From contig CAZEQZ010000001.1 of assembly GCA_964514595.1 (NCBI GenBank), positions 331,847 to 395,846 of the forward strand: a DNA stretch of 64,000 bases. The letters run 5' to 3'. The position numbers were made by a program, and so were the translations under genes. Shown here piece after piece: positions 232 through 53,219 of the stretch. The notes beneath the pieces were generated by a model. The model saw only the letters and a list, made by a program, of their open reading frames with translations. It did no database searches and was not told the DNA's origin. The stretch's first letter is position 1, and each line of letters begins with the position of its first letter. The DNA is from an uncultured Candidatus Saccharibacteria bacterium (GTDB taxonomy: Bacteria; Patescibacteriota; Dojkabacteria; SC72).

Positions 232-235
232 AAAA

Positions 236-8823: not shown

Positions 8824-8888
8824 GTTCTTGATAATTGAAAAATAATACCTTTCATATTACCTTATAGTTTTAATTTTGTAAAAAGAAT

Positions 8889-8928: not shown

Positions 8929-9042
8929 TAAATAGGTTATCAAGGACTATGATCTTTCTTGTAGTAGTGGTTGCCGGAAAGAAAGGGAGTCAATGGCAAA
9001 ACCGATTGATAATAATAATTAAATTATTATTATTTAATCGAT

Positions 9043-9615: not shown

Positions 9616-9647
9616 TAGTAACGGGACTGCTGGATATAGTAACAATT

Positions 9648-9678
9648 GCAGTACTCTTTGGAGTACTGCTTTGTTTAT
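9648..9678 (+). terminator. Rho-independent terminator after LAETG paralog A
   Basis: 9-bp perfect stem GCAGTACTC / GAGTACTGC with a TTTG loop, followed by a T-rich tract. Confidence 0.5.
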
Positions 9679-9698
9679 ACAGTAGTATCTGATAGTAA

Positions 9699-9728
9699 TT
9701 GACTATATTTCCAAAGCAGGAGTATAAT
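9699..9728 (+). promoter_or_regulatory. Sigma-70-type promoter TTGACT-18-TATAAT for LAETG paralog B
   Basis: -35 at 9699-9704, -10 at 9723-9728, about 75 nt upstream of the ATG at 9805. Confidence 0.4.
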
Positions 9729-9804
9729 TGGTAAGTAATCATTAACTAATACTTTAATTTTTAAGTTTGTTAATGAATATATTAAATTTTTACTATTTAA
9801 TAAC

Positions 9805-14311: not shown

Positions 14312-17300
14312 TTAGGATTTCCTTTTCTTAAGAATTAGTAGGATTCCAACTGTGAGTATTAATCCTGTACCTATGTATATGTATAGAAGATATTCTTTTT
14401 TAATCTTATTCATCTCTATGTTCATTTCTATGGTTGTTTTTTCCACCTCTATCTCCTCACTTTCATATGTTTCGTATCCATCTAGTTCAACCTTTATTTT
14501 ATAAGTACCAGGTTCTACTAAGAATTGGTATTCTCCATGTGTATTGGTATATTGTGGATTATTTGCTATACCATATATATTCCAGTCATCATCTAATTTG
14601 GCATATAGTGTTACTTGTGCATTACTGAGTCTTAACTCATTCTCATCAATTTTTTCGTACACGAAACCGTATGGGTCTACTAATACCTCCAACTTCATTC
14701 TCACGGATGTATTATCATCAAACATTGCTAATATATTCAAATCATATGTCCCTAAAGAGTTGAATATATCCATCTTGGTTTCGTAGAAGTAGGATGTACT
14801 ATCTAGGGCTAGTTTTGTGATTTCTCCATTACTCTCTATGTATACTCCTTTAATAGAAGAGTTGGGGTTCAAGGAGGATATTGTGTTGATTGGGATTCCA
14901 ACATCTAGCGTGTTATTGGCGTATATTGAGAGCTTTGTTTTTTCATTTACAGAAATATTTTTCTCCCCCAAAGTTATTGTTACTTTATCATTATCCTTAA
15001 TTGTTTTTATTGGAGTAGCAGTATCTTTGATTGTATCTAGAACTGCTTTCTTTTCTTCCGATGTTAATTTATTAGATTGCTCTTTAGGGATTTCCATAGG
15101 AGGCTCTTCTGTCACAGGAGGTGGAGTTGGAGATTGTGTAGTTGACGGTGTGGTTGGAGGTTGAACAGTAGAGGCTTTGGTATAACAAGTTGTGCTCTCG
15201 GAGTATGCTGTTTCAATAGCATCTCCGTTGCGAGCTTTAACTCTAAATGTATAGGCAGTAGATGGTGTTAACGATTTCACCGTGTACGAATTGTTAGTAG
15301 TGAATTCTGTAAATGTCCCCCACTGAACTGTATCTGAAAGTACACCTAATGTCTTGTCTAAATATTTATTACTACTAGACTCGTTAATTAATATATTCGT
15401 ATTATCGGGATTAGAATTTTTCTCTACAGAAAGAGTTATAGTAGTAGATGTGGTGGTCAGACAGGATATCGTAGGAGTATTCGCCAGGGTATATCTAGAT
15501 AAGGTAGAAGAACTACTTGTCTCTATACTTTCCGCATTTCTAGCCTTCACAGAATAGCTATACTGTGTGTTTGGAATTAAATTCAAAGAGGAATCTGTAC
15601 TATTTTGAACCCATTCATTGATTCCAGTATTACAATTGGAAGAAGAGCATGAGAAAAGGAGGCCTGATGATACTTGTTCTAGATTATTAACATTAGTCGC
15701 ATACAAAGTTATAGAAGTTGAGGTAAGGGCTGTAGCTGTTAAGTTAGGGATATCACTTAATGTATATTGGGAGATCGTGGAAGAGTATCCACTCTCTATA
15801 CCTTCAGCATTACGTGCTTTGGCCTTGTAAGAATACTGTGTATTTGGTTGCAGAGAAGAGGATGTTGCCGTACTATTTTGTACCCATGTATTTATACCCG
15901 TATTACATCCACTATTTATACAATTAAACAGAATTCCTGATGTGCCTGAGGATAAATTGGTTGCATTTGTAACATTTAATCCAATTGAATTTTTGTTAAC
16001 AGTTCCGAAGGTAAGTACTGGTATGTCAGCAAAGGTGTATTTACTAGTTTCCTCAGAGTAATTACTATCCCCTAGGATATTGTAGGAAGAAATTTTTCTT
16101 CGATATTGGGTGTTAGGTAATAGATTGATTTCTTCAATATAGCTCAAATCAGAAGTTTCTTCTGTTTCTATCAAGGAATTATCATAATTATATAGTTTAA
16201 AACCTAATTCATTATCTGAATTGTCTGTAAAATTCCATCTTATACTTGAAGTTGAGATAGTTTCAGGAGTCTCAATTGTAGGGGCAAGTGGAGCTTGATC
16301 ATATGATAATGAAATATCGTCTAAAACTGGTGTTGCTACGCCTTCGTCATTATCAAATTCTATTTTATAATAGAAGGAATCTGTTTCCCAATCTAGGGAT
16401 GAAAGATCTATAGAGTTGCTATTTCCTTGTACAAGAGTATCAGATCCATCTTCTACCCCTCCTGAGTTATACCACGTTGTTGCATCTGTACTAAATTGTG
16501 CAGTTGCGGAAGTCCCAGAGGGTAAAGAGGATATGGAGTAATCAAATGAAATCATTTTCATATTCTCATCTCCAGGAAGAATGTCTAAAGATTGTATAGA
16601 AGTTTGATTTTGGTATTGAGGAAGTTGAGTGGTATGTGCCAAAGGAGTTGTTGTCCCAGATATCGAGGACACATAATCAATATGAATTCTTCCATCACCA
16701 CCGTTTCCTCCACTGTATGCACCTGTACCTCCAATACCTCCATTTGCAGTTACTTTGTCATTTCCTAAGGTTATACTGTTTGTATATAATTTAACAGAGC
16801 CTCCTGCACCACCACCACCACCACCGCTATACGCTCCTGCATTACTTCCATCTGCTCCATTAGCGTTCACAGAGCCATTTGCTCCAACAACTACATTTTG
16901 TCCATATATGTATACAATTCCTCCACCTGCTCCGCCTGCTCCTGTAGAGGTTGGTGATCCACTTCCTCCAGAACCACCGCCAGCTCCAAGAAAAAGAAGA
17001 GAAAGATCTGCTACTCCATAATTACCACCACCACCACCTCCTCCTGCATACGCTTCTCCCGATACTCCTCCACAATACGCATTTCCTCCAGTACCACTAT
17101 TATCTCCACCATCTCCACCATTTTGATATCCACTTCCTCCTCCTCCTCCTGTTCCATATCCACCACCACCACCACCACCACCTTTGGTTTTCGTTAACAA
17201 ATTGCCCAAAGAAGTTCCACCGCCACCACCCGCACCTCCAACTCCACCAGTACCACCAATACCACAATCAACAGGGCCATTGTCACTGTATACATAGAAG

Positions 17301-18652
17301 ATGAGATCGTGAGTATTGTCCGCTTGCCAATTAGTACCATCATGAGACACCCTGTTTCCCCCATGCGTGGGGCTTGTTGAATCAGCCCCTATCAATACCT
17401 TATTACTAGAATTTCCACCTGTATACTCTAAAACCACAACATAGTTAGTTCCGTTAGTAAGGGTAATTCTCTCATCACCAGAAAAGTTGAAATTTATTAA
17501 CGCAATAGTGGTTGTTAATGTTGATACATCGAAGGCGTCTGATGTGGCAAGCAAAGTGTCCGGAACAGAAGATGTCCCAAAAGTTCCACTATGGGAGTAT
17601 ATCTTTGCATATCCATTTCCCGTTGGAGAACCACTCTTTTTCATATAGAGTTTAAGACTATCGATAGCTCCACCATTACCTGTAAAGGACTGACCCTGTT
17701 TTCCGTTTGCTCCATATATATCAAAATTTGTACTAACATAATTGGTATTAGCGTAATTGTCTACATTTGCAATCTTTAAATACATTCCACCACCACCTCC
17801 ACCACCGGCATATGTCTCGTTCTCTCCATTTTCGTTTCCGTAAGTGAGTTTCCCGGCATTTTGAGCCCTACCTTTTGCATAATCTGCACCTCTTTCTCCA
17901 CTGCTTGTACAAGATAGGGAGCAGGCAGTACCTCCAGGAAAGCCCTTTGTCGCTCCATTTATAGAACCATTAATCGCAACTGTACCTGTGGCTTTAAAAA
18001 AAATGACACCGGCATTAGCAAGTAACGATTTAGTGTCAGAAGTAATAGCAAATCCCTCGTTTACCGTTACATCTGTATATTGAGGAACTCTAATAATGGC
18101 TATATTATTTGAAGAGTAGTATGTGTTTTGTAAGTTGGTTTCGAAAGTCAATGTATCCCCAGTTATATTAGAAATAGTAACTGTCTCATACTGTCCTGTA
18201 TACTGTGCGAAAGAGGATAAACCATCTTGAGTTATTATTAATACCTCATCTCCCACAGCTAATCCGTTTAATGTAGATGTACTTAAACGCATTTGGTTTG
18301 TACCAGCATTTGCGGTATAAGTACTATACTTCTGAAACCGTACAGCATCTCCGTATGCCCTTCCCACACATGACTGTGTGTTGATATTCATATTACTTGA
18401 TACAGTACAGGCTCCATCAGCACCTGTTCCAAAGGTGTATGATCTTGTCGATGCAGAAATTTGACCTCCTGAAAGTATATAGTTTGATGAATTTACAGCG
18501 TCGATATATGTATCATCTATAAAAGCGTCATTAACAGTATATGCATTTACATCTTTATAGTAATTATCTTTTAAAAAAAGAAAAAACAAAGAACAGAGTA
18601 TTGATGCTATCAGTATAATTGTCAAAATTCTACGACCTCTGGTGCGGGGCAT
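14312..18652 (-). CDS. Giant cell-surface protein with N-terminal signal anchor, Gly-rich (poly-G/GGxGG) region, tandem FN3-like repeats, CarboxypepD_reg-like domain and C-terminal TM anchor
   Basis: 1446 aa. N-terminus MPRTRGRRILTIILIASILCSLFFLF. Long GGGGGG/GGxGGxG tracts. At least four FN3-like units ending PNTQYSYKAKARN / PNTQYSYSVKARN / PSTAYTFRVKARN. Motif YGIANNPQYTNTHGEYQFLVEPGTYKIKVELDGYE near the C-terminus. C-terminal TM helix plus a KKRKS tail. Confidence 0.7.
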   Translation of the reverse strand: MPRTRGRRILTIILIASILCSLFFLFLKDNYYKDVNAYTVNDAFIDDTYIDAVNSSNYILSGGQISASTRSYTFGTGADGACTVSSNMNINTQSCVGRAYGDAVRFQKYSTYTANAGTNQMRLSTSTLNGLAVGDEVLIITQDGLSSFAQYTGQYETVTISNITGDTLTFETNLQNTYYSSNNIAIIRVPQYTDVTVNEGFAITSDTKSLLANAGVIFFKATGTVAINGSINGATKGFPGGTACSLSCTSSGERGADYAKGRAQNAGKLTYGNENGENETYAGGGGGGGMYLKIANVDNYANTNYVSTNFDIYGANGKQGQSFTGNGGAIDSLKLYMKKSGSPTGNGYAKIYSHSGTFGTSSVPDTLLATSDAFDVSTLTTTIALINFNFSGDERITLTNGTNYVVVLEYTGGNSSNKVLIGADSTSPTHGGNRVSHDGTNWQADNTHDLIFYVYSDNGPVDCGIGGTGGVGGAGGGGGTSLGNLLTKTKGGGGGGGGYGTGGGGGSGYQNGGDGGDNSGTGGNAYCGGVSGEAYAGGGGGGGNYGVADLSLLFLGAGGGSGGSGSPTSTGAGGAGGGIVYIYGQNVVVGANGSVNANGADGSNAGAYSGGGGGGAGGSVKLYTNSITLGNDKVTANGGIGGTGAYSGGNGGDGRIHIDYVSSISGTTTPLAHTTQLPQYQNQTSIQSLDILPGDENMKMISFDYSISSLPSGTSATAQFSTDATTWYNSGGVEDGSDTLVQGNSNSIDLSSLDWETDSFYYKIEFDNDEGVATPVLDDISLSYDQAPLAPTIETPETISTSSIRWNFTDNSDNELGFKLYNYDNSLIETEETSDLSYIEEINLLPNTQYRRKISSYNILGDSNYSEETSKYTFADIPVLTFGTVNKNSIGLNVTNATNLSSGTSGILFNCINSGCNTGINTWVQNSTATSSSLQPNTQYSYKAKARNAEGIESGYSSTISQYTLSDIPNLTATALTSTSITLYATNVNNLEQVSSGLLFSCSSSNCNTGINEWVQNSTDSSLNLIPNTQYSYSVKARNAESIETSSSSTLSRYTLANTPTISCLTTTSTTITLSVEKNSNPDNTNILINESSSNKYLDKTLGVLSDTVQWGTFTEFTTNNSYTVKSLTPSTAYTFRVKARNGDAIETAYSESTTCYTKASTVQPPTTPSTTQSPTPPPVTEEPPMEIPKEQSNKLTSEEKKAVLDTIKDTATPIKTIKDNDKVTITLGEKNISVNEKTKLSIYANNTLDVGIPINTISSLNPNSSIKGVYIESNGEITKLALDSTSYFYETKMDIFNSLGTYDLNILAMFDDNTSVRMKLEVLVDPYGFVYEKIDENELRLSNAQVTLYAKLDDDWNIYGIANNPQYTNTHGEYQFLVEPGTYKIKVELDGYETYESEEIEVEKTTIEMNIEMNKIKKEYLLYIYIGTGLILTVGILLILKKRKS
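15290..16250 (-). repeat. Intragenic tandem repeats (about 270-285 bp units encoding FN3-like domains) within the giant surface protein gene
   Basis: DNA-level similarity between blocks near 15520-15580 and 15790-15840 (both encode PNTQYSY..KARNAE). Repeated protein units of about 90-95 aa. Confidence 0.5.
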
Positions 18653-18749
18653 AATGAAAATAGTACCACTATTACATTATTATGGCAATAACGTTATTTT
18701 TCTTGTACAAGCATATAGATATTTATGCCTTTTCTTAGTATATTATTCT

Positions 18750-20135
18750 ATGCACTCATTAAAAGATAGAAAAGTTCTGATATTTGGTCTTGGTTTAAAT
18801 GATGGTGGATTGGGTATGGCAGAGTATTTCCTAAAGCATGGCGCATTAGTTACCATAACTGATTTAAGAACAAAAGAACAACTATCTCCAATATTAGGGA
18901 AGTTAGAAAAGTATAAGGAGCAAATAACGCTACACTTAGGAGAGCATAGAGAAGAAGATTTTCTAAATAATGATATTATTGTTAGAAATCCTGCTGTTAA
19001 ACCAAATAGTGAATATCTACAAATAGCCCAAAAAGCGGGGAAACAGATTGAAATGGAGATGAGTCTTTTTCACAGACTCTCACCCTGCCCTATCATAGGA
19101 ATAACTGGGACAAGGGGGAAGTCCACAACAACTTCTTTAATATATGAATTTCTGAAGAAAAAATACGGAGGAAAAATATTTTTGGGAGGAAACATAGGAA
19201 GAAGTGCTATAAGAGAGGTGGATACTCTAACCAAGGATAATATTGCTGTTTTGGAAATATCTAGCTTTCATCTAGATGGTATGGGAGCAAATAAAGTATC
19301 ACCACATATTGCTGTTGTTACAAATATGTACATAGATCATCAAGATTGGCACGGTAGTATGGAAGAGTATATAAATGCAAAGAAGAACATATATAGATAT
19401 CAAGGGAATGATGATTATTTGGTTGTAAATATCGACAATGATATTACGAAAGAATTTGTGAAGGATTGTAAGTCCAATATTATCACCTACTCACTTAAAG
19501 ATACCCCTGCAAACTACTATATGGATGATAATATGCAGATATATTTAAATGGTGTACCTATACTAAAGCTTCAGTCGAAAGATGTAGCTTTAAAAGGAGA
19601 ACATAACATGTATAACATACTTTCTGCCATAGCTACAGCGAAAATATATGACATTAGTAATGAAGATATAGAGGAAGTCTTAAAAGATTTCAAAGGTGTA
19701 CCTGGAAGGCAAGAGCTTGTTAGAGAGCTTAATGGTGTTAAATTCTATAACGATACTACAGCAACCTCTGTAGAGGCTGTTAAAGCTATGTTTGAGAGAT
19801 TTTCAAAAGATTTCAGTGGGAAGATTATTATGATAGCAGGTGGCGTGGATAAAGGACTTGATTATTCATTGCTTGTAGACAATATGAAAGAACATCTAAA
19901 AGGTTTGGTACTTCTTGAAGGTACAGCCTCTGAGAGGATAAATGACTTAATGGGTGATTTTGATAATACGCATAAGTATTTTAATAATATGGAAAGTGCA
20001 GTTAAGAAGGCATATGAGTTAGCAAAAGATGGAGACATGGTAATACTGTGTCCAAGTGCTTCAAGTTTTAATATGTTCTTGAATGAATTTGATAGAGGTG
20101 ATCAGTATGTAAAGTATGTTAATTTGTTAAAATAA
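18750..20135 (+). CDS. murD: UDP-N-acetylmuramoylalanine--D-glutamate ligase
   Basis: N-terminal KVLIFGLGLNDGGLGMA Rossmann-like domain. P-loop GITGTRGKSTTT. LEISSFHLD and DHQDWHG motifs. Start placed at the internal ATG at 18750 (MHSLKDRK) because the longer ORF overlaps the divergent giant gene. Confidence 0.8.
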   Translation: MHSLKDRKVLIFGLGLNDGGLGMAEYFLKHGALVTITDLRTKEQLSPILGKLEKYKEQITLHLGEHREEDFLNNDIIVRNPAVKPNSEYLQIAQKAGKQIEMEMSLFHRLSPCPIIGITGTRGKSTTTSLIYEFLKKKYGGKIFLGGNIGRSAIREVDTLTKDNIAVLEISSFHLDGMGANKVSPHIAVVTNMYIDHQDWHGSMEEYINAKKNIYRYQGNDDYLVVNIDNDITKEFVKDCKSNIITYSLKDTPANYYMDDNMQIYLNGVPILKLQSKDVALKGEHNMYNILSAIATAKIYDISNEDIEEVLKDFKGVPGRQELVRELNGVKFYNDTTATSVEAVKAMFERFSKDFSGKIIMIAGGVDKGLDYSLLVDNMKEHLKGLVLLEGTASERINDLMGDFDNTHKYFNNMESAVKKAYELAKDGDMVILCPSASSFNMFLNEFDRGDQYVKYVNLLK

Positions 20136-20139
20136 TTAT

Positions 20140-21480
20140 ATGATAGATATACAAGGATTGAAGAAGGTTCATTTTATAGGCATCACCTCCGCTTTTTGTA
20201 GCTTCTGTGCTAACTATCTCATAGAGAAAGGGGTTAAAGTCACTGCATCGGAAGTTAATCAACAATCAGAGGATGCAAAAAAATGGATAGAGAGAGGTGT
20301 CTTGTATGAGGGTGGTCATAGTGGAAAATATATAACAGATGATTTGGATTTAGTTGTTCTTCCCACAGGTCCTATTCCAGGTAATCCAGAGTGTGTAGTT
20401 GCAGAAAGAAAGAATATTCCAACTATTCCAGTAGCTAAATTAACGGGAATAATTAGTAAAGAGTTTAAGACAATTGCCATAGCAGGTACACATGGGAAAA
20501 CAACCACATGTGCTTTAACTGTATGGATGTTATATAAGGCGTTAGGCTCTCTCCCAAACTTTGTTATAGGAGATCACATATTAGATATAGATAGATCATG
20601 GAACTACAATCCCGAGAATGAGTATTTTGTAGTAGAGGCATGCGAATACAAGAAACAATTTCTAGATAGAGCCCCTACTCCATATATTTCTGTCATAACA
20701 AATATTGAATTAGATCATACAGACTTCTTTAAATCGCAAGAGCAGTATAATGATGCTTTTGTGGAGTTTGTATCAAATACCACAAAAGCTTTGGTAGTCG
20801 ATACAAAGGGGAATAATATAGAAAATATTTTAAGAAAGATTAAGGAATACAACATAGAGATAGTTGATGTTGCTAATCTAAAGGATGATTGTTCTAATGT
20901 CACAGCGGGTCTCAGAGGTGATTATAACAAACAGAACGTACTAAGGGCATGTGGTGTAGCAGAATACTTAAAGTTAAATGTTGATATAGAGGATTTCCCA
21001 GGAGTAGCTTCAAGATTTGAATTTAAGGGTTCTACCATTAATGGTATGTCAGTATATCTTGACTATGCACACAATCCCACAAAGGTGAAGGCATGCTTGA
21101 GAGCTACGAGAGAGAGCTTCCCAGATAAAAAAATAATATTTGTGTGGCAACCGCATAGTTTTGAAAGGACATACTCTTTCAAAGATCAATTTGCAAAGAG
21201 TCTTGACGATACAGATATTTTATATATCCCCAATATTTTCGCACCCAACCGAGAGGAGAGAAGATATAAAGAATTAATAACTGAGGAAGAATTTGTAGAT
21301 TATCTTAAAGAGAAGAACCCTTCTAAAGAAATACTTTATACAAAGGATTTCGAAAATACCGCATCGCTACTCTTGGATAAAAAGTATAACTCTGATTATA
21401 TCTGTGTATTAGCCAGTGCAGGAGATTTGTATAAAATACTTCCCAGCTTGAAATTAGAAGATAATAAAGATGAAATATAG
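20140..21480 (+). CDS. Mur ligase of MurC/Mpl type (UDP-MurNAc--L-alanine ligase or murein-peptide ligase)
   Basis: N-terminal VHFIGI... domain. P-loop AIAGTHGKTTTC. EACEYKKQFL (EADESD-like) and DYAHNP motifs characteristic of MurC/Mpl. Confidence 0.7.
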   Translation: MIDIQGLKKVHFIGITSAFCSFCANYLIEKGVKVTASEVNQQSEDAKKWIERGVLYEGGHSGKYITDDLDLVVLPTGPIPGNPECVVAERKNIPTIPVAKLTGIISKEFKTIAIAGTHGKTTTCALTVWMLYKALGSLPNFVIGDHILDIDRSWNYNPENEYFVVEACEYKKQFLDRAPTPYISVITNIELDHTDFFKSQEQYNDAFVEFVSNTTKALVVDTKGNNIENILRKIKEYNIEIVDVANLKDDCSNVTAGLRGDYNKQNVLRACGVAEYLKLNVDIEDFPGVASRFEFKGSTINGMSVYLDYAHNPTKVKACLRATRESFPDKKIIFVWQPHSFERTYSFKDQFAKSLDDTDILYIPNIFAPNREERRYKELITEEEFVDYLKEKNPSKEILYTKDFENTASLLLDKKYNSDYICVLASAGDLYKILPSLKLEDNKDEI

Positions 21481-23056
21481 CGAAATAAAAAAAGTAGTAG
21501 TTATTGGTATTGGAGGACGAGGTGCCTACTACATTGTTAAATTCCTTAATCTTCTAGATATAGTTGTAGAAGGATATGATCTAAAGGAATCAGAAAGAAC
21601 AAAGGAAATAGAGAGTTGGGGTGTAAAGATTAATTATAGGAATCCTCAACCAGGTGAGATATTTGATTGTGATTTTTTCATATATACGAATGACTTACTT
21701 AAAGAATTGCAAGAGCAAATAAAGGAGGACAATAGCGATAAGGAGGGTTTGGAATTAGGGAAATTCTACAAACAAATCATCAAAGATTTTGAGTCTGGGA
21801 ATATGAATGAGAGTGAGATAAAGGCTTTTAAAGATTCTAACATTGCTCCACTATTTGATATAGATACTTCAAAAATGAGGTATATAGCTATTACAGGTAC
21901 TGATGGGAAGACAACAACCTGTACTATGATCTACCATATGTTGAAAGATAATGGATTTAAACCTGCATTAATAACAACAGTTGCAGCATATATTGGAGAA
22001 GAAGAGATTGCGACTGGTTTGCATACAACGACTCCATCGTCCCAAGAACTATACGATCTTCTAAAACGAATAGAAACAGAGCAATGCACACATGTGATCA
22101 TAGAAGCCACATCTCATGGCTTAGAACAAGGGAGATTAGCAGGGTTAAAGTTTGATACTGTTGGATATACAAACATCACATCAGAGCATTTAGACTACCA
22201 CGGCAATTGGGATAGCTACTGCAATGCCAAAGCACTTCTAATAAAGGATCATCTTAAGGATGGTGGTTTAGTTGTATTAAATAAGGATGATAAATCCTTC
22301 GAAATACTCTCTAAACTTTCAAATAATGTTCTCACCTACTCTATTCTTCAAGTAGCAGATTTTGAAGGAAAAGATATAGAAGAGTTAAAGAATGGAATAA
22401 ATTTCGAGTTGAGAAATAAGGAAGAAACATTTCCTATAACTTTGCCAATTTTAGGGAAATATAATGTTTCTAATTTTCTTTGTTCTGTAGCAGTCTGCGA
22501 AAAAGAAAATATTACGATTGAGAAAATGAAAGATTCAATCATTTCTTTTAAAACAGTTAAAGGAAGAATGGAGATACTTAAAAAAGAACCGTATACCGTA
22601 ATTGTGGACTATGCTCATACCTCCAATGCTGTAGAGAATGCTCTTAAGTCTGCAAGGTTGATGGTGAAAGATGATGGAAAACTTATTCATGTTTTTGGTT
22701 GTGCAGGTAGAAGAGATTTCTATAAAAGACCTGAGATGGGAAGAATCTCAAATGAATTAAGTGATATTACAATATTAACGGCAGAGGATCCTAGATTAGA
22801 GAATTTAGAAGACATAAATGATCAGATAGAGAAAGGTTGGAGAGAGGGCAAGAATAAGAAAGGAAAGTTGTATAGATTTGACTATATGGATAAGAATGTA
22901 GAGGTTAGAAGAGATGCAATTAAAGAAGGTTTAGAATTAGCCAAGGGGAATGATGTTGTAATAATAACAGGAAAAGCTCATGAAGAATCTCTCTGCTTTG
23001 GGCAGATAGAGTATCCATGGAATGATATTGAGGAGAGTAAAAAACTAATAGCATAA
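21470..23056 (+). CDS. Mur ligase, MurE-like central and C-terminal domains with atypical MurC-like N-terminal domain
   Basis: P-loop ITGTDGKTTTC. GLHTTTP, EATSHGLEQGRL, EHLDYHG, DYAHT and TAEDPR motifs resemble MurE (TTP, SSHGL, DHLDYHG, DYAHTPDAL, DNPR). The N-terminus VVVIGIGGRGAYYIV resembles MurC/D. Its start overlaps the upstream gene by 11 nt. Confidence 0.6.
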   Translation: MKYSEIKKVVVIGIGGRGAYYIVKFLNLLDIVVEGYDLKESERTKEIESWGVKINYRNPQPGEIFDCDFFIYTNDLLKELQEQIKEDNSDKEGLELGKFYKQIIKDFESGNMNESEIKAFKDSNIAPLFDIDTSKMRYIAITGTDGKTTTCTMIYHMLKDNGFKPALITTVAAYIGEEEIATGLHTTTPSSQELYDLLKRIETEQCTHVIIEATSHGLEQGRLAGLKFDTVGYTNITSEHLDYHGNWDSYCNAKALLIKDHLKDGGLVVLNKDDKSFEILSKLSNNVLTYSILQVADFEGKDIEELKNGINFELRNKEETFPITLPILGKYNVSNFLCSVAVCEKENITIEKMKDSIISFKTVKGRMEILKKEPYTVIVDYAHTSNAVENALKSARLMVKDDGKLIHVFGCAGRRDFYKRPEMGRISNELSDITILTAEDPRLENLEDINDQIEKGWREGKNKKGKLYRFDYMDKNVEVRRDAIKEGLELAKGNDVVIITGKAHEESLCFGQIEYPWNDIEESKKLIA

Positions 23057-23230
23057 TTTCCAATATTTTAAGAATGGCTTCTTGTATATGCAGATATCTT
23101 AATTAAGTATTGATATTCAGATGTTAGGAGAATTTTGGGGTGTACTTAAACCGAATTCTAATATTATCACTGTAAATCTAATAAATGTAAAGATGTGTTA
23201 GGATATGATGTATGTAATTTTTAAATTTAT

Positions 23231-24412
23231 ATGTTTATGAGATATACAGGAACAGTAGTAAGAGGTATAAGAACCCCTATAATTAAACAAGGGGACGATT
23301 TAATAGATGTAGTGGTCTCTTCTCTCCTTAGGGTTTCAAAGGGAGAAAAGTTCCAATTTAAGAATAGGGATATTGTTGGTATTACAGAGGCTGTAGTATC
23401 AATATGTCAGAATAATTACGTAACTATTGATGAAGTAGTTAAAGATTTAAGGAAGAAGTTTCCAGTGGATGAGATTGGCATAGTTTTTCCAATACTTAGT
23501 AGAAACAGATTCTCTTTGATTCTTCATGCAATAACTAAAGCATTTAAGAAGGTTCATATACTCTTTAGTTATCCAGCAGATGAGGTAGGAAATCATTTGA
23601 TGAATGTAGATAAAATGGAGAAGCTAGGTGTTAATCCATATTCCCACTCTTTTGGTGAGCAAAAGTATAGAAAACTATTTGGGAAGAAAGTTAAACACGA
23701 ATTTACTGGTATGGACTATGTCGAATACTATAAAAGTATAGGGAATGGGAATGTAGTTGCACATTTTTCTAATGATCCAAAATATATACTCAAATACACG
23801 AAGAATGTGTTAGCATGTGATATACATACTCGGGAAAGAACAAAAAGAATTTTGAAAGTGAATGGAGGCAAATTGGTGTACGGTTTGGATGATATATGTT
23901 CAAGAAAAAGTAGTAAAAGAGGTTATAACAAGGAGTATGGTCTGTTAGGTTCTAATAGAATGGGAGAAGATAGGTTAAAACTTTTCCCGAGAGATGGAGA
24001 TGAATTTGTTAGGAATGTACAGAAGAGATTAAAAAAGGAGACAGGAAGGGATATAGAGGTGTTAATATATGGGGATGGTGCCTTTAAGGATCCTGTCGGA
24101 AAGATTTGGGAATTAGCAGATCCAGTTGTATCTCCAGGCTTCACAGATGGTTTAAAAGGAAGACCTAAAGAGATTAAACTTAAATATGTATCGGAGAATT
24201 GGAATAAAGAGGGGAAGCTGGATGATTATGTAAAGCAGATGATAAAGGAGAAGAATACAGAGAAATATGTCGTAGAGAAGTCATTAGGTACTACACCAAG
24301 ACAACTGACTGATTTACTTGGTAGTCTTTGTGATTTAACTAGTGGTAGTGGAGATAAAGGTACGCCTGTTGTTTTAATACAGGGGTATTTTGATGATTAT
24401 ACTGTAGAATAG
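23231..24412 (+). CDS. CofE-family (F420-0:gamma-glutamyl ligase-like) amide-bond ligase homolog
   Basis: N-terminal IRTPIIKQGDDLIDVV...IVGITEAVVS matches the CofE/FbiB N-terminal pattern. The later block EVLIYGDGAFKDPVGKIWELADPVVSPG matches the CofE C-terminal pattern. Longer (393 aa) than canonical CofE. Confidence 0.45.
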   Translation: MFMRYTGTVVRGIRTPIIKQGDDLIDVVVSSLLRVSKGEKFQFKNRDIVGITEAVVSICQNNYVTIDEVVKDLRKKFPVDEIGIVFPILSRNRFSLILHAITKAFKKVHILFSYPADEVGNHLMNVDKMEKLGVNPYSHSFGEQKYRKLFGKKVKHEFTGMDYVEYYKSIGNGNVVAHFSNDPKYILKYTKNVLACDIHTRERTKRILKVNGGKLVYGLDDICSRKSSKRGYNKEYGLLGSNRMGEDRLKLFPRDGDEFVRNVQKRLKKETGRDIEVLIYGDGAFKDPVGKIWELADPVVSPGFTDGLKGRPKEIKLKYVSENWNKEGKLDDYVKQMIKEKNTEKYVVEKSLGTTPRQLTDLLGSLCDLTSGSGDKGTPVVLIQGYFDDYTVE

Positions 24413-24919
24413 TTATATCTTCCTACTATCATAGGCCCAATGTAATACAGCTTGTCTCTGTTTCTTTCTACAATCCAAATCCAGTGGTATACAGTTTTTC
24501 TGTATCCCAGCTATATGTCTCTTTATAGCCCTCCATCTTTTAATCTGTCTTTCATCCTCTGGTGGTATTCTTCTTCCCATATAATATCTACAATACCATT
24601 GAAACCATCCTCTTGGATCTTCGTGATGTATCCAACCTTTCTGTCTCCAATACGATAGCGGCATACTAGCGTCTACCTTGAAAAAGTTAAGGGATATGTC
24701 TTTCTTTCGTGGAGATAGTTTAGCGTTAGTAAACCAATCCTTAGGGAATTCTTTAATACAATCAGTCATATACTTCCCACCAAATACTCCTAGTTCCAAC
24801 ATCTGTTTAGGAGTAAGTTCTGGTTCAAATTCAGGATCAAAATTTTTGCCAACAAGCTCTATGAGGTAATATACATAATTGCTTTGCATCTTATCATTTA
24901 CAATAACCTTTTTGTTCAT
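24413..24919 (-). CDS. Conserved hypothetical protein (Trp/Arg-rich), translationally coupled to the LD-carboxypeptidase gene
   Basis: Start chosen at the internal ATG that overlaps the upstream stop by 1 nt (TAATG). Distinctive conserved-looking block GWIHHEDPRGWFQWYCRYYMGRR. Family not identified. Confidence 0.4.
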   Translation of the reverse strand: MNKKVIVNDKMQSNYVYYLIELVGKNFDPEFEPELTPKQMLELGVFGGKYMTDCIKEFPKDWFTNAKLSPRKKDISLNFFKVDASMPLSYWRQKGWIHHEDPRGWFQWYCRYYMGRRIPPEDERQIKRWRAIKRHIAGIQKNCIPLDLDCRKKQRQAVLHWAYDSRKI

Positions 24920-25908
24920 TAATGTTTGGTTATTTTTATACTTGCAGAGGAAGCAGTAAGATCGAGGGTACACTCTCCTCCCACAGGAAAGGTTATCTTA
25001 GGATCTGTGTGACCGAAATCAACATTGGCAACCACAGGTATACCTTCTAGCTCTTTTTTATTCTTTATCATTATTTGTAAATCCTCTTTTGACACCTCAC
25101 TATCCCTCTGGAACCTCCCTATTACAATCCCTTTGACACCAGAAAACCCTTTTTGATGTATTATGGAGTGTAGATCTCTATCAAAATTAGTAGCCCTTGA
25201 TTCGGAATCGTCCTCTAGAAACAGTATGGAATCTTTAAGAGAAGGCATATACTCAGTTCCTTGTATTAGGTTGAAAGTACAGAGATTAGCTCCTAAGATA
25301 GTACCTTTAGTCTTTCCTTCATTTATAACCCAGTATCCATCATTTTTAACATTATTTCTTTCATCTTGGTTTATATACCAAGCATCATCATTCCACTCTT
25401 TGCTTGGCAAAAGATCAAACTCATCATCTTCAAAAAGGCACTTCATAAGATATTCAGGTGTATATGGGTCTAATATTTTCTGTCCAAATGTTGAATAATG
25501 CGGACCAGAGTATGTGACTAACCCGGTTTTAGCATATATTGCATTGTTGAGTGCTGTTATATCAGAAAAGCCGCAGAATATTTTGGGGTTATTTTTAATA
25601 ATATCCCAATCTATGTAGTCGAGTATCTGATTACAGTTAAAGCCACCAATTATTGTAAATATTGCTTTAACACTACTATCTAAAAAGGCCTCATGGAGAT
25701 CAGTTACTCTTGATTCTACCGATGAAGAAACAAAATGGTCTCTTTCTTCTACATTTTTACCAAAGGTCACTCTCAGATCTAGTTTATTTTCGAAGTACTC
25801 CTTCGCATATTTCCTACTATCTTCCCCTATCATGCTCATAGAGCGAGATGGGGCGATGACTCTAATGGTGTAACCTTTTTTTAATTTGTTTGGGTATATT
25901 TTATTCAT
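24919..25908 (-). CDS. ldcA: Muropeptide LD-carboxypeptidase (peptidase S66)
   Basis: S66 nucleophile motif FCGFSDITAL. C-terminal catalytic His in DFGHTDP. N-terminus GYTIRVIAPS. 329 aa. Confidence 0.75.
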   Translation of the reverse strand: MNKIYPNKLKKGYTIRVIAPSRSMSMIGEDSRKYAKEYFENKLDLRVTFGKNVEERDHFVSSSVESRVTDLHEAFLDSSVKAIFTIIGGFNCNQILDYIDWDIIKNNPKIFCGFSDITALNNAIYAKTGLVTYSGPHYSTFGQKILDPYTPEYLMKCLFEDDEFDLLPSKEWNDDAWYINQDERNNVKNDGYWVINEGKTKGTILGANLCTFNLIQGTEYMPSLKDSILFLEDDSESRATNFDRDLHSIIHQKGFSGVKGIVIGRFQRDSEVSKEDLQIMIKNKKELEGIPVVANVDFGHTDPKITFPVGGECTLDLTASSASIKITKH

Positions 25909-26028
25909 AGATATAATGTATCACAGAGATATTGGAAGAGCAAGGTTTATTGAAGAAGTATGCCCCATAGTGATATAATCCATGTTGCCGTCAAATTGCT
26001 CATAAAAACATAAAAAAGGGAGATAGAA

Positions 26029-26289
26029 ATGCAATATGCTGATATTATTGTGATAGAGGATCCGACAGGAAAAATTGTCCTTTGGGACATACTAGAATTT
26101 GAATTAAATCCTAAGGAATTCCTGCGAATATCGGAAGAAGTAAGTAAAATCACGCAATGTAATGAAGAAAAGGAGTATATTTTACTTCTTTGTAATCCTC
26201 CTTTCAATGCAAGGGTTACTATTTGCTCTATAAATAAGAGCGAAGTTCTCTTGAAAGATCTATTCGAGAGAATAAAAAAGATGAACTAG
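26029..26289 (+). CDS. Hypothetical small protein
   Basis: 86-aa ORF with an AGGGAG Shine-Dalgarno 6 nt upstream. A weak hairpin plus T-tract follows at about 26305-26335. Confidence 0.3.
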   Translation: MQYADIIVIEDPTGKIVLWDILEFELNPKEFLRISEEVSKITQCNEEKEYILLLCNPPFNARVTICSINKSEVLLKDLFERIKKMN

Positions 26290-26359
26290 ACGGAACAATA
26301 ATCTGCCCAGGGGTGCTTTAGCACATTTTTAATATAAAGTACCCCTTCAGATTTAAGAA

Positions 26360-26557
26360 TTATGAACTCTTCTTTTGAAAAAACTTTATATACAGTATTG
26401 GTAATATACCTACTGTATTAAATATCAATATACATACAAACCACGACAATTGATTATTCCTAGCAGATTTCCATAATGCTATGGATTTCCAGACCCCTTC
26501 CCATATTGATAGCAATAAGATAAAAGGTATATATCTACTAATTATATCTATATCCAT
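26360..26557 (-). CDS. Small membrane protein, PLD-nuclease N-terminal (PLDc_N)-like
   Basis: 65 aa. Two TM helices with conserved Trp pattern (LSIWEGVWKSIALWKS) and GILPILYIKF, resembling PLDc_N small membrane proteins. Confidence 0.4.
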   Translation of the reverse strand: MDIDIISRYIPFILLLSIWEGVWKSIALWKSARNNQLSWFVCILIFNTVGILPILYIKFFQKKSS

Positions 26558-26574
26558 ATTGTTATATTAACAAT

Positions 26575-27099
26575 TTAAATCTTAGGCGGTGTAACACCAT
26601 CTTGATTAGAATATTTACTCTCCTTACCTCCTACTATCTTTTCACTTAGTTTAGCAAACAGATATGTACCAATCTTCTCACCCTTATGTAATACAATATT
26701 ACAATTTCCTAAATTCTTTATTTCTAATACGGAATTTTCATTATTGAAAGGTATTCCATCTAATACTAATGCTGTAATATGTATAGTCATCCCTACTCTA
26801 GCAAATGTAGATCTACCATCTACCATGGTTATAATGTCCTTGTCTGTCCTTACACTCTGAAGTGTAGAGCCTAAAACAAAATCATTAGGTTTTAAAATAT
26901 ATGGACCCTTAGATAGATCATGTTTGTCATATTTTAATTCTTTTGGCTTCTGAGTATCTACTGTTTGATTAGGTTTAGGTATAAGTAATTCAGGACCTAA
27001 ATTCATAGTTATTCCCTTAGTCTCAATATGTAGTTTTCCTTTTACAATAATCTTCCCCTTTTGTATGTATTTGCTAATTGTTTTATTCGAAAGAAACAT
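26575..27099 (-). CDS. dcd: dCTP deaminase / dUTPase-family protein
   Basis: GRSTFARVGMTIH motif (GRSSLARLG-like) followed by a dUTPase-like beta region. N-terminus ISKYIQKGKII typical of Dcd. 174 aa. Confidence 0.6.
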   Translation of the reverse strand: MFLSNKTISKYIQKGKIIVKGKLHIETKGITMNLGPELLIPKPNQTVDTQKPKELKYDKHDLSKGPYILKPNDFVLGSTLQSVRTDKDIITMVDGRSTFARVGMTIHITALVLDGIPFNNENSVLEIKNLGNCNIVLHKGEKIGTYLFAKLSEKIVGGKESKYSNQDGVTPPKI

Positions 27100-27201
27100 G
27101 GCAATATGTATACACTTAATACATATATATTACATCATATTATAACTAATTCATATATTATTAATTAAGTGATATACTAGAAAAATTTTTAACAAGAATA
27201 T

Positions 27202-27744
27202 ATGGATAAGGTAGAAAAAGCTATATACTTTGCAACAAAAGCACACAATGGGCAAAACAGGAAGATGGAAGATGTAGCGATGATATTTCACCCATTTACT
27301 GTAGGAATGATACTCCAAAGAGCTGGATGTAGCGATGATATTGTCATAGCAGGTCTATTACATGATGTCATAGAGGACACACCGTATACTAAGGAGGATA
27401 TTGAAAAGAGATTCGGAAAAAAGATTGCAAATATTGTAGATGGGGTTTCAGAATCAGATAAAAGCTTACCTTGGAAAGTGAGAAAACAAGAAACTATAGA
27501 TCATGTTAAGGGTTCAAGTATGGAGGAAAAGCTTGTAGAGTGTGCAGATAAAATAAATAATCTAGAGTCAATATATATAGATTTGCAAAGAGAGGGAGAA
27601 GAGGTGTGGAATAAGTTTAAGAGAGGGAGGGAGGATCAGGAGTGGTACCATAGGAATGTTTTGGAGAGTATAGTGGCCAATACAGATGAAAAGCACCCAC
27701 TGTTTAAAAGACAAAAGAAATTAATTAAAATGGTATTTGGTTAA
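27202..27744 (+). CDS. HD-domain (p)ppGpp hydrolase-like small alarmone hydrolase (SpoT/Mesh1-type HD domain)
   Basis: Pattern KAIYFATKAHNGQNRK...HPFTVGMILQ...AGLLHDVIEDT matches the RelA/SpoT HD hydrolase domain. 180 aa. No synthetase domain. Confidence 0.55.
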   Translation: MDKVEKAIYFATKAHNGQNRKMEDVAMIFHPFTVGMILQRAGCSDDIVIAGLLHDVIEDTPYTKEDIEKRFGKKIANIVDGVSESDKSLPWKVRKQETIDHVKGSSMEEKLVECADKINNLESIYIDLQREGEEVWNKFKRGREDQEWYHRNVLESIVANTDEKHPLFKRQKKLIKMVFG

Positions 27745-28418
27745 CCTCCCCTATTCTGTACTCTAAATAGTATATTTCTAAGTAGTGTTTTAATGGATAT
27801 CTTTTTAAAGAAAATATATCCTACTAATGAGAATGGTATCATTACACTAAATACCCTTATGGTGGTTATCAATATATTACTACTTCCTTGCATAACATAT
27901 ACCATTACAACAGCCCAAGGTATCATACATATTACCGTCATAATCATATAAGTAGTGAACTTAATATCTGTTAGTCCAAAAGCATATGATGCAAAATCAT
28001 TCATATAGAAGGTTAAAAATCTTAGTAAAAGATATTTCTTTGTGCTAAGTCCTCTAACAATATCCTCTACAGTATTAACTCCTTCTTTCCCTACAAAAAA
28101 CTTAAGTACAGATTTCCCATATCTTTTTGCAATCAGAAAGTTTGTAATGGATGTAACTAACCATACTAATATCATGTATGCAATAGCTCTTTGGCCAAAC
28201 AGTATAAATCCAGCTACGAATAATACAGAGGTACTTAAGGGAGCAAATATTTGTCCTACTATCTGTATAAGTACGTATAGTATTGGAGCGTATATCCCAG
28301 CTTGCAAAACATACTCTACTACCTCTTCCGTGGTATATATGTTAGAGATGTATAAAAGGGAGAGTATAAGGAATATAGATAATATTATAACTAGTAATCT
28401 TTTATATTTTTTTAACAT
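27741..28418 (-). CDS. DedA/TVP38/TMEM64-family membrane protein
   Basis: Polytopic membrane protein with a core (FAPLSTSVLFVAGFILFGQ...ITNFLIAKRYGKSVLKFF) resembling the SNARE-associated/DedA family. Confidence 0.45.
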   Translation of the reverse strand: MLKKYKRLLVIILSIFLILSLLYISNIYTTEEVVEYVLQAGIYAPILYVLIQIVGQIFAPLSTSVLFVAGFILFGQRAIAYMILVWLVTSITNFLIAKRYGKSVLKFFVGKEGVNTVEDIVRGLSTKKYLLLRFLTFYMNDFASYAFGLTDIKFTTYMIMTVICMIPWAVVMVYVMQGSSNILITTIRVFSVMIPFSLVGYIFFKKISIKTLLRNILFRVQNRGG

Positions 28419-28876: not shown

Positions 28877-30445
28877 ATGGAAGATTTTCAATCAATAGAG
28901 GGTTCAGAAAAAGAAGAGAAATCTATTAGTCGAAGGGAGTTTCTAGGAACAATAGGAAAGGGAGCATTAGCAATGGCATTTATGCCCCATTTGGATATTA
29001 AAAATGAACAAGACTTAGTAGAAAACAATCCGTTTGCTGAGATCTCTCAATCATATGTTGCCAATAATCATGATGATGCTATTAAAGTTGCATGTAATCT
29101 TAGGGGTGTAAGTACGGCTTCTGCCGAAAATATATGTGGTCCTTTAGCGACTGCGATCCTCTTGGGTTACAAATTAAATGAAGATGGTACATTTAGTCAA
29201 ATTTGGAATGAAGATGTAAATAAGGTAAGGATGGAGGGTGATGTATCTCCTAATGATATGTGGTTAGGAAAATTTGATCACGAGTCGAGATTTAGATGGG
29301 CCTTTCCAGAAGAGAAATATGAACGTTATCGTATAAATGCTAGTGTAGGGAAATTAGATTTCAGTGATATCCCGGGTGCAAAAGAATTAGAAGTAGGAGA
29401 TTTTCTATATCTTTACGGTGGTTCTTTTACACACTATATAGCAATATCCAGGAAAGATCCAGATGGAAGGGTATACTGTGTCTCTAACGTTCATGGTGAC
29501 TACAAGGAGCATTTTGAGATAAGGGAGTTAATGCTTTGGGATCCTAAAACAAAGGATGGATTTTTCAGACAATGGGCAAGAGGTGCAGGAGGATTAAAAG
29601 CTACAACAGGGACCAAAGGTTTTTATATTGCAAGAAGAAAGACTCCTGGTGAGATACTTTTGGATGATACTGTCTCTGAAAAGTCACGCAATGTTTTATT
29701 AAATAAAATGCTGGAGAAAAAACAGGGCAATTGGAATGTGTTAATCACAGAGATGGGAGAAGGAAAACTTTTTGAATGGAGAAATGGGGCCCCCTATACA
29801 ACAGATTCGGCTATGAAGCTACCACTATCCATTTTCGCAATGAGAATATTTGAAGATATGCATAAGGAGATGATTAGGGCCAAAGGTTTAAAGGCTGTAC
29901 TAGAGGAAGAGATTTATGATAGAAAGTCATTTAATGAATTAATGGTAAATATGCTACAAAATTCTGATCCGAATGCAATACATAGCATAATAAAATATAT
30001 AAAGGAGAGTAGGAATATAGATGAAATAACATATGAGTTTGGAATGAGAGAGACTAGTTATAAACCTTCAAGAAGGACCTCGCAAAAGGACATGTTTAAG
30101 TGTTGGGATGAGCTTTATTCTGGGAAGTCACTTTCCACTGATTCCCGAAGCTACATTCTGCAAAATATTGCAATTAAACCGGAAGATAATACTTTCTTAT
30201 CTAACGAAATTAAAAAATATATTCCAACTGCCAAGTTATGGGGAGTAAGGGATGAGATAAGGGGACATGCACCTAGTACGCAAGAAAGTTGTATTATAGG
30301 AGTTGATTCCAGATACTATCATATTAGTATTGCAGGAACTTCTTCAGAAGGAAGAATACTAACCAAAGATGATGCTGAACAATTCACAAGGGAAATAATT
30401 AGTAATTTGGGTTCCTATTTGCAACAAAGACAAAGGGAGAAGTAG
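28877..30445 (+). CDS. Secreted protein with Tat-like signal (SRREFLGTIG), N-terminal C39-like papain-fold peptidase domain and C-terminal serine-hydrolase (beta-lactamase-like) region
   Basis: Twin-arginine-like motif SRREFL followed by a hydrophobic stretch. Catalytic-Cys context ENICGPLATAILLGY and His context FTHYIAISRKDPDGRVY fit the peptidase C39-like pattern. The C-terminal half has DSAMK (SxxK) and SDPN (SDN-like) elements. Confidence 0.4.
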   Translation: MEDFQSIEGSEKEEKSISRREFLGTIGKGALAMAFMPHLDIKNEQDLVENNPFAEISQSYVANNHDDAIKVACNLRGVSTASAENICGPLATAILLGYKLNEDGTFSQIWNEDVNKVRMEGDVSPNDMWLGKFDHESRFRWAFPEEKYERYRINASVGKLDFSDIPGAKELEVGDFLYLYGGSFTHYIAISRKDPDGRVYCVSNVHGDYKEHFEIRELMLWDPKTKDGFFRQWARGAGGLKATTGTKGFYIARRKTPGEILLDDTVSEKSRNVLLNKMLEKKQGNWNVLITEMGEGKLFEWRNGAPYTTDSAMKLPLSIFAMRIFEDMHKEMIRAKGLKAVLEEEIYDRKSFNELMVNMLQNSDPNAIHSIIKYIKESRNIDEITYEFGMRETSYKPSRRTSQKDMFKCWDELYSGKSLSTDSRSYILQNIAIKPEDNTFLSNEIKKYIPTAKLWGVRDEIRGHAPSTQESCIIGVDSRYYHISIAGTSSEGRILTKDDAEQFTREIISNLGSYLQQRQREK

Positions 30446-30458: not shown

Positions 30459-31577
30459 TTATTTCTTGTATATTCTAGGGACTCTTTCACTGATACTAGT
30501 TAGCATATCCCAAATTGATCTTTCTGAGAGCGAAGATAATTTATAAAGAGAAATATTATCTCCCCACAACTCTACTGTATCGCCTACATATGCTTCTCCA
30601 GTCTTTCCCAGACTTACCATAACTTGATCCATACACACCCTTCCTGCTAGTGGATATATTTTATCATTAACATACACATATCCTTTATTTGACAATGTAG
30701 ATGGATATCCATCTGCATATCCTACGGGTAGGGTAATGATACGGGATCTGTTCTCCGTAGTATATGTTCTATCATATCCAACAGTATATCCTTTCTCTAA
30801 AACCTTAAAATATGATACTTTTGTAAAAAATTTCATAACAGGTTTTAGTAATCTTTGTATCTTAGGATTAAAACTGTATCCATACAGCATAAGGCCAGGT
30901 CTTGCCATATCAAAAAAGGAGTCTTTGTAATTGTTTGATACCGCACCACTATTTGCTAAGTGAATAATTGGAGGAAGTTTATAGTTCTTTTTAATATATT
31001 CCAATACCTTACTAAACCTCTCAGATTGTAAATATGTATATATTTTGTCATTAATAGAATCAGAAAAATGAGAGAATATTCCTACAATATTAATATTCTC
31101 TAAACTGTATGCTTTATCTATGAATTTTTCTTTCCTATCCCACTGTACCCCTATTCTACCCATACCAGTATCAATTTTAAGATGTATATTAGCACATTTT
31201 CCTAATTTCTTAGCCACTTTAGATATGTTCTCTATTTTTTCAATAGAAGATCCTGTCATATCGACATCATATTTAAGATACAATGGAACCTGTGAGTTAG
31301 TAATAGCACCTAATACAAGTATTGGCTTTTTAATACCATTCTCTCTTAAGTATATTGCTTCTTCCAAATATGCCGTGCCTAAGTAGTCTACATTTAATTT
31401 TTCTAATTCTTTGGATATTTCTACTAACCCATGTCCATATGCATTTGCTTTAACTACACCCATTAGTTTTGTATTTTTACCAATAATATTTCTAATCACC
31501 AAGACATTATTTTTAAGGTTATTTAAAGAAATCTCTACATAGGTCGGTCTGTTTTGGAATATAGGACTATTAAACAT
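30459..31577 (-). CDS. alr: Alanine racemase
   Basis: PLP-lysine motif VVKANAYGHG. Two-domain Alr architecture. 372 aa. Immediately downstream of ddl. Confidence 0.85.
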   Translation of the reverse strand: MFNSPIFQNRPTYVEISLNNLKNNVLVIRNIIGKNTKLMGVVKANAYGHGLVEISKELEKLNVDYLGTAYLEEAIYLRENGIKKPILVLGAITNSQVPLYLKYDVDMTGSSIEKIENISKVAKKLGKCANIHLKIDTGMGRIGVQWDRKEKFIDKAYSLENINIVGIFSHFSDSINDKIYTYLQSERFSKVLEYIKKNYKLPPIIHLANSGAVSNNYKDSFFDMARPGLMLYGYSFNPKIQRLLKPVMKFFTKVSYFKVLEKGYTVGYDRTYTTENRSRIITLPVGYADGYPSTLSNKGYVYVNDKIYPLAGRVCMDQVMVSLGKTGEAYVGDTVELWGDNISLYKLSSLSERSIWDMLTSISERVPRIYKK

Positions 31578-49389: not shown

Positions 49390-49449
49390 TTTCCTTGACA
49401 AGTGTGTTCTATTTGGATAGATTATCAAATAACCTCTAATTACACGTAC

Positions 49450-53218: not shown

Positions 53219-53219
53219 A

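Follow-up and report, generated by a model that had tools for sequence, protein, structure and literature searches.

The window analysed here is a 64 kb stretch of DNA from a genome of the Dojkabacteria (WS6), which belong to the candidate phyla radiation (CPR), and the locus in question is a run of six genes between positions 18750 and 25908. Three ligases of the Mur family open the run on the forward strand. These are murD (18750-20135), encoding the UDP-N-acetylmuramic acid (UDP-MurNAc)-L-Ala:D-Glu ligase of 461 amino acids (aa), murC (20140-21480), encoding a divergent UDP-MurNAc:L-Ala ligase of 446 aa, and a murE-type gene (21470-23056), whose open reading frame (ORF) shares 11 nt with the end of murC. 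On the same strand follows the gene of a 391-aa protein (23237-24412, with an alternative start at 23231), a ligase-like protein with the fold of the F420 ligase CofE, which falls into a long, uncharacterised subfamily. Two genes lie on the reverse strand, namely that of a conserved 168-aa protein rich in Trp and Arg (24413-24919) and that of a 329-aa protein of the S66 LD-carboxypeptidase family (24919-25908).

A preliminary description, made from the sequence, had placed six ORFs at these positions and had read them as a non-canonical set of peptidoglycan-peptide ligases, suggestive either of a module for recycling or remodelling of the peptide stem or of the synthesis of a modified stem peptide. 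All six ORFs are indeed there. We consider it likely, with a probability of about 0.7, that the region is an ordinary housekeeping murD-murC-murE operon of a small-genome Dojkabacteria, standing beside syntenic neighbours that are not its partners. They are more plausibly taken as genes that a compact genome has placed side by side than as one recycling or remodelling module, and the cluster as a whole gives no pointer to new cell-wall chemistry. Two oddities in it are real: one is a MurE whose front domain is of the MurC type, the other a CofE-like enzyme that is widespread.

The public annotation names the genes MurD, MurC, MurE, "hypothetical protein" (for the CofE-like gene) and LdcA. For the CofE-like protein and the 168-aa protein, most of the top named matches come from Candidatus Dojkabacteria (WS6, CPR), and identical proteins are also encoded on other contigs, of up to 760 kb. 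Our Pfam scan covered most window ORFs of at least 110 aa, several of which gave no match; the other ORFs of the window were judged from gene calls with Pfam labels, made on the same genome or on relatives in synteny with it.

The Mur ligase triplet and its hybrid MurE

The first ligase is MurD, as had been proposed. It aligns end to end with the model TIGR01087 at 383 bits, against a cut-off of 212, which places it within this equivalog, and it carries the Pfam domains MurD-like_N, Mur_ligase_M and Mur_ligase_C. The second ligase likewise contains all three Mur domains, and MurC is by far its top-scoring family, with TIGR01082 giving 263 bits in a single full-length stretch that runs from residues 9-435 on model positions 1-446. 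It differs from the MurC of this model by a score below the equivalog cut-off and by its N-terminal loop. At that loop the MurC chains of the PDB carry a glycine-rich GIGGAG or GIGGxG, whereas the window protein has GITSAFCS (20140-20250, forward strand), and its counterpart in a second Dojkabacteria lineage, represented by loci L002 and L003, has GITSSFSS (7049-7160 of L002). The preliminary description had left this ligase between MurC and its paralog Mpl. MurC is the half of that label that stands; Mpl is ruled out, as its model TIGR01081 gives 112 bits against a cut-off of 389, far below the 263 bits of the MurC model. The same Mpl model gives 45-47 bits on the first and third ligases.

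The third ligase is built from two sources. Its match to the MurE model TIGR01085 reaches 353 bits against a cut-off of 257, which puts it in the MurE subfamily, and begins only at aa 118; the PDB MurE chains 7d27, 4bub and 4c12 match it with E values (expectation values) of about 1e-51, and all of these alignments start between aa 121 and 134. The central ATP-binding and C-terminal amino-acid-binding domains (about aa 126-528; 21845-23056) align fully with MurE (TIGR01085; PDB 7d27, 4bub, 1e8c). The N-terminal, UDP-binding part of about 125 residues (21470-21844), in contrast, aligns with no MurE N-domain and aligns with those of MurC instead. Pfam finds in the first 137 residues a weak Mur_ligase match to profile positions 3-49, and no N-terminal domain of the MurE/F type was detected in this protein. 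Since direct BLASTP comparison of the N-domain with the MurC and MurD of the window was not significant, profiles were required to type it. A profile made of three sequences (A5: the window, L002 and one fragment) matched seven distinct PDB MurC N-termini in register, with E values of 4e-5 to 1.6e-3; its PDB matches include neither a MurE nor a MurF chain. The NCBIfam murC model covered the N-domain at positions 3-72 in the window (E 5e-5) and 3-98 in L002 (E 8e-6), and the NCBIfam scan of these two N-domains gave no murE or murF match.

These alignments show that the third ligase is, as far as its sequence tells, a natural domain hybrid of a MurC-type N-domain and the ATP- and amino-acid-binding core of MurE, which bears out the earlier proposal of a MurE-like ligase with a foreign, MurC-like front. 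It is encoded by a single uninterrupted ORF. Between the window and L002/L003 the hybrid is 55% identical in the N-domain and 66% in the core. The type of N-domain is the feature that divides MurC and MurD from MurE and MurF (PMC10117817), and for this reason the hybrid is to be regarded as a real variant.

The hybrid shares with MurE the P-loop, here GTDGKTT, and the arginine of the motif at the DNPR position. This motif is EDPR in both lineages, not DNPR, and aligns to the DNPR of PDB 7d27. DNPR is the motif of MurE enzymes that add meso-diaminopimelate. While the adjoining MurC carries GITSAFCS, the hybrid keeps a canonical GIGGRG loop, and this pattern is kept in both lineages. From family membership, each of MurC, MurD and MurE would activate the terminal carboxylate of a UDP-MurNAc intermediate at the expense of ATP, so that L-Ala, D-Glu and a diamino acid would be added in turn to give UDP-MurNAc-tripeptide. 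The hybrid would keep the activity of MurE, probably with the UDP moiety held in the manner of MurC and MurD. It represents a natural test of how Mur enzymes place substrates of differing length.

The clustering of the ligases is real and not a product of chance, because the gene order murD-murC-murE-CofE-like recurs in the second lineage, L002/L003, with proteins 64-72% identical to those of the window. The wider backbone of the Dojkabacteria, consisting of MurB, HAD, the murD-murC-murE slot, the CofE-like gene, DCD and Cupin, recurs across lineages, and the ligase triplet fills the slot in the lineage of the window (L086-L088) and in L002/L003. At L140, where the CofE-like protein is 79% identical to that of the window, the triplet is missing and the HAD gene is followed directly by the CofE-like gene. 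At L142, which has the closest CofE-like protein (84% identical), murE is not upstream, and the same is true of L004, L005, L094, L096 and L141, as well as of L006, L007, L008, L093, L095, L111 and L133. The adjacency of murE and the CofE-like gene is therefore movable synteny and not a conserved operon, having been lost in L140, L142 and at least five other arrangements. A tie of the CofE-like gene to the mur genes, as suggested in the preliminary description, is not supported.

The CofE-like protein and its family

The product of the fourth gene of the run is a divergent protein of the CofE fold family, and the profile and structure comparisons show that it carries about 145 residues more than CofE. 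Its homologues and the public gene calls use the second ATG, at 23237, and not the listed start at 23231. The Pfam family PF01996 (F420_ligase) matches at 176 bits against a cut-off of 25, and the match spreads over 374 residues for a model of 218 positions. An AlphaFold model of the protein (predicted local distance difference test, pLDDT, 78) has the CofE structures 2phn, 2g9i and 7uld as its top PDB matches in Foldseek, with E values of 7e-6 to 1.5e-4 and a probability of 1.0, and for this reason the fold assignment holds; the template modelling (TM) scores are 0.44-0.50 by the length of CofE and about 0.3 by that of the query, at 12-13% identity. A direct sequence search against the PDB matched no CofE chain. 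The family profile reaches CofE chains at an E value of about 0.5, in three weak blocks that stand in the same order in both proteins. The CofE equivalogs TIGR01916 and NF009809 give 42 and 46 bits, against cut-offs of 181 and 274, and do so over aa 338-386 only. The membership in the CofE family that had been claimed for the 23231-24412 product is thus sustained by Pfam and by fold, and does not extend to the CofE equivalogs.

With CofE and the N-domain of FbiB the protein shares the Pfam family, the top PDB fold and the three ordered blocks. It differs by its length of 391 aa compared with about 250, by its failure on the equivalogs, by a gene context without F420 genes, and by its hosts, which are Firmicutes and CPR bacteria. 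The metal ligands of the A. fulgidus CofE are Asp109, Asp150/Thr151 and Glu208. In the weak profile alignment, Leu239 and Ser373 fall in the columns of CofE residues 109 and 208, with Asp282 and Asp375 one or two residues off those columns. Of the extra residues, about 115 separate aligned blocks 1 and 2, and the GDG motif is followed by about 34 more. In CofE the region after the GDG motif contacts the head-group of F420 (PMC10861534). The most conserved segment, AFKDPVGKIWELADP, lies within the extra stretch after this motif, where the confidence of the model is low.

The family is large: clustering at 50% identity gives about 1,446 clusters, of which many are full-length (370-410 aa), and at least 595 genome loci encode a member. 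Its distribution and its neighbours in the Firmicutes were read from the best 80 of these loci, which hold a few CPR entries and then mostly Clostridia, Tissierellia, Oscillospiraceae, Lachnospiraceae, Peptoniphilus and Paenibacillus; one locus, L030, is labelled Acholeplasmatales. The Firmicutes proteins are 52-58% identical to that of the window. A Mur ligase stands beside the CofE-like gene in none of the approximately 70 Firmicutes loci. Among 134 immediate neighbours that were scanned, the commonest families, with six members each, are the 5-formyltetrahydrofolate (5-formyl-THF) cyclo-ligases and the LysR regulators, and beyond small clade-specific sets no conserved Firmicutes gene partner was found. 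Neither the scanned window ORFs nor the commonest families among the 134 neighbours include a family of F420 biosynthesis, in agreement with the earlier remark that the organism shows no obvious F420 metabolism. In databases the family is labelled F420 ligase or hypothetical protein, though no F420 context was seen, and it is probably mis-annotated. Fusions of the CofE-like domain to a reverse transcriptase, a transporter, a histidine-kinase ATPase and a fragment of AlaRS were also met; they are heterogeneous, look like artefacts of assembly or gene calling, and were set aside.

The CofE-like protein would be a nucleotide-dependent amide-bond ligase with a substrate other than peptidoglycan. 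Our best single guess, a tentative one by analogy with FolC2, is that it may carry out the gamma-glutamylation of a salvaged folate-type cofactor. FolC2 (CT611) of Chlamydia, a member of COG1478 (the CofE family), is a proven folylglutamate synthase, and represents a precedent for an enzyme of the same superfamily acting on a cofactor other than F420 in a reduced genome (PMC4161248). In six loci of the Tissierellia type, the gene of a 5-formyl-THF cyclo-ligase lies directly upstream of the CofE-like gene on the same strand; in L009 it occupies 9352-9936 on the forward strand, with a gap of 64 bp to the CofE-like gene, and five similar loci occur in L009-L085. On the other side of the comparison, the FolC2-type model TIGR04132 has a cut-off of 350 bits, far above the score of the window protein, and the genes of the CofE-like family do not sit within a cluster of folate genes. 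With the substrate identified, a widespread annotation would be put right, and a step of cofactor salvage in reduced genomes might come to light.

Other neighbours of the CofE-like gene deserve a record of their own. At L142 a 283-aa ligase of the RimK/ATP-grasp type (8173-9024, reverse strand) converges on it, with no homologue in the window or in the other fetched loci. In methanogens, CofE is paired with an ATP-grasp glutamate ligase. By analogy, the L142 neighbour may be a hint of glutamylation chemistry, as a single case. In L004/L005 (11880-15488) and in L141 (11896-17210), a GH3 hydrolase (NagZ-like) and a glutamate racemase lie near, and a PMT-type glycosyltransferase stands directly upstream.

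The S66 protein and the overlapping 168-aa gene

The S66 protein matches both domains of its family, Peptidase_S66 at 121 bits and Peptidase_S66C at 100 bits, and shares with LdcA these two domains and the GFSD motif; when the sequence is read directly, no signal peptide is evident. It departs from LdcA by its score on the equivalog NF008424 (113 bits against a cut-off of 378), by having no Mpl partner, and by being specific to one lineage at this locus. The preliminary description had presented it as the LD-carboxypeptidase that partners Mpl in murein recycling. Membership in family S66 is what survives of this; the LdcA equivalog and the Mpl partner do not.

A stop/start overlap of the form TAATG leads from the S66 gene into the 168-aa gene, as had been reported, and the sequence at this point, read directly, is ...AAACATTAATGAAC..., also read as CATTAATGAAC. 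The ATG inside this overlap, at 24919, is the start of the 168-aa gene (the listed ORF extends to 24973). At its other end this gene is convergent with the CofE-like gene, stop against stop, with 0 intergenic bases. The S66 and 168-aa pair was found only in the lineage of the window (L086-L088). In L002 and L003, DCD comes directly after the CofE-like gene, so that neither the S66 and 168-aa genes nor an 86-aa ORF are found at that position. The 168-aa gene stands apart from the S66 gene in L089, L138, L139 and L090, which are, in no particular order, a 2.9-Mb genome, another Dojkabacteria contig, a Beckwithbacteria contig and a Rhizobium plasmid. A functional coupling of the two genes was rejected because their pairing is confined to the lineage of the window. 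The two would form a lineage-specific pair, whose overlap probably comes from genome compaction, since the 168-aa gene is not beside the S66 gene elsewhere.

The 168-aa protein has at least 8000 homologues. The best 120 are 73-90% identical and carry the labels Dojkabacteria, Beckwithbacteria and Omnitrophica; further members, about 65% identical, occur on megaplasmids of Rhizobium and Sinorhizobium, and others, 30-45% identical, in jumbo phages of Vibrio, Yersinia, Cobetia and Flavobacterium. The protein gave no sequence match in Pfam, NCBIfam, PHROG or the PDB, its structure model is poor (pLDDT 59), and a fold search with it had no match. Its gene neighbours on one rhizobial plasmid and in one jumbo phage were uninformative. 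Near the copy in L138, a Dojkabacteria contig of 547 kb, lies a heliorhodopsin gene (1-679, forward strand).

Weighing the readings, and the rest of the window

The locus would be a truly non-canonical peptidoglycan ligase cluster if the CofE-like ligase added or capped a residue on the UDP-MurNAc-peptide alongside the hybrid MurE. We hold this to be improbable. In two Dojkabacteria lineages its gene does come after murE in the same orientation, with a gap of 17 bp in L002, yet 174-180 bp separate the two genes in the window, the adjacency is lost in L140 and L142, where the closest CofE-like proteins are encoded, and at most other Dojkabacteria loci, and there is no murE adjacency in the approximately 70 Firmicutes loci. 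In other Dojkabacteria lineages, genes for Alr, glutamate racemase and a GH3 hydrolase are nearby, in two Firmicutes (L013 and L042) a true Alr is no more than four genes away, and CofE and MurD share analogous acyl-phosphate chemistry (PMC10861534); the family nevertheless has no conserved cell-wall partner. Hardly likely, too, is the thought that the long CofE-fold family, 52-58% identical between Dojkabacteria and Firmicutes, is a new nucleotide-dependent amide ligase acting on cell-wall precursors, alongside a rule-breaking MurE. If a cell-wall reading were true, a CofE-fold enzyme might add a residue to the stem peptide. Many database entries for the homologues, from several sources, would make the protein a true F420-0:L-glutamate ligase, and a PF01996 score above the gathering threshold and the CofE structures at the top of the fold matches agree with them. 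To this we give next to no credence, and it was rejected on the equivalog scores (42-46 bits against 181-274, over the last ~50 residues only), the ~145 extra residues and the gene context, in which no F420 biosynthesis family is among the commonest neighbours. The missing direct match to a CofE chain and the profile E value of about 0.5 also speak against it, as do the fermentative Firmicutes and CPR bacteria that are its hosts. The weak alignment with CofE, which sets Leu and Ser against its residues 109 and 208, may point the same way.

A salvage route has also been weighed, in which the S66 protein would trim an imported or host-derived tetrapeptide to a tripeptide, and the MurC-type ligase would re-attach it to UDP-MurNAc in the manner of Mpl. 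The Mpl model, at 112 bits against 389, is hard to reconcile with this when the MurC model runs end to end at 263 bits, even if the score of the MurC falls short of the equivalog and its N-terminal loop is atypical. The S66 protein, lying about 3.4 kb from the MurC-type gene and having no evident signal peptide, would suit such a route, as would the GH3 hydrolase nearby in related genomes; it is, however, below the LdcA cut-off (113 against 378 bits), and its gene is missing from the L002/L003 locus, which keeps the same ligases. In addition, the 64 kb hold three ORFs of the Mur ligase family only, so that the window offers no further one to serve as the biosynthetic MurC. We regard this route as quite unlikely.

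Several observations weigh against the reading of the region as a housekeeping operon beside unrelated neighbours. The MurC reaches 263 bits where its equivalog asks for 335. A homologue search with the N-domain of the hybrid MurE returned one 76-aa fragment only, and the hybrid is known from two lineages. Among the Pfam-scanned window ORFs there was no match to murF, mraY, murG or ftsW, and the preliminary description was correct in seeing three clustered Mur ligases without the latter three; nor did a 10-kb extension beyond the left end of the window (L092) hold murF, mraY or murG, all of which are presumed to lie elsewhere in the genome. The Alr, racemase and GH3 genes of some Dojkabacteria and the Alr of the two Firmicutes, already named, count here as well, and in the L009-type loci a divergent cluster of an FtsE-like ABC ATPase, FtsX and an M23 (PcsB-like) peptidase adjoins. 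Because the CofE-like gene recurs near cell-wall genes in this way, a cell-wall role of its product, though weakened, keeps a small probability. The folate guess, our best single one, has a single precedent and a single group of related loci behind it, with TIGR04132 at only 16 bits. The housekeeping operon is nonetheless the reading that we prefer; an integrated recycling or remodelling module, as first proposed, is not supported, given the unconserved link to the CofE-like gene and an S66/168-aa pair that is confined to one lineage.

Promoter and terminator scans gave counts at or under the expectation from shuffled sequence, and Rfam had no match in 17000-28000. Elsewhere in the window, as noted earlier, lie further genes of cell-wall precursor synthesis, which would serve other steps: MurB (6328-7410, reverse strand), Alr (30459-31577), Ddl (31579-32574) and a GlmS-type protein (44544-46331). 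MurB has 360 aa in the window and in L140, and 295 aa in L002. Its MurB_C match covers 141 residues for a model of 99 positions, and an insertion of about 40 residues or more is therefore suggested. Adjoining Alr and Ddl is a 522-aa protein with a Beta-lactamase2-type domain (28877-30445, forward strand), which is kept in the contigs L086 and L087 of the same genome.

Between the HAD gene and murD lies the gene of a 1446-aa protein (14312-18652, reverse strand) with long glycine-rich stretches, a C-terminal hydrophobic segment, a faint fn3 match and a weak CarboxypepD_reg match. It looks like a lineage-specific insertion of a surface protein, since it is missing at that position in L002 and L140. 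Three consecutive large ORFs of 336, 930 and 577 aa occupy 55830-61355 on the reverse strand, without a Pfam match. At 48538-55789 are encoded a protein with an Fe-only hydrogenase large-subunit domain, subunits of pyruvate:ferredoxin oxidoreductase, and a protein of the ADP-forming acetyl-CoA synthetase type (CoA-binding and ATP-grasp_5), a set of genes that suggests fermentative energy metabolism.

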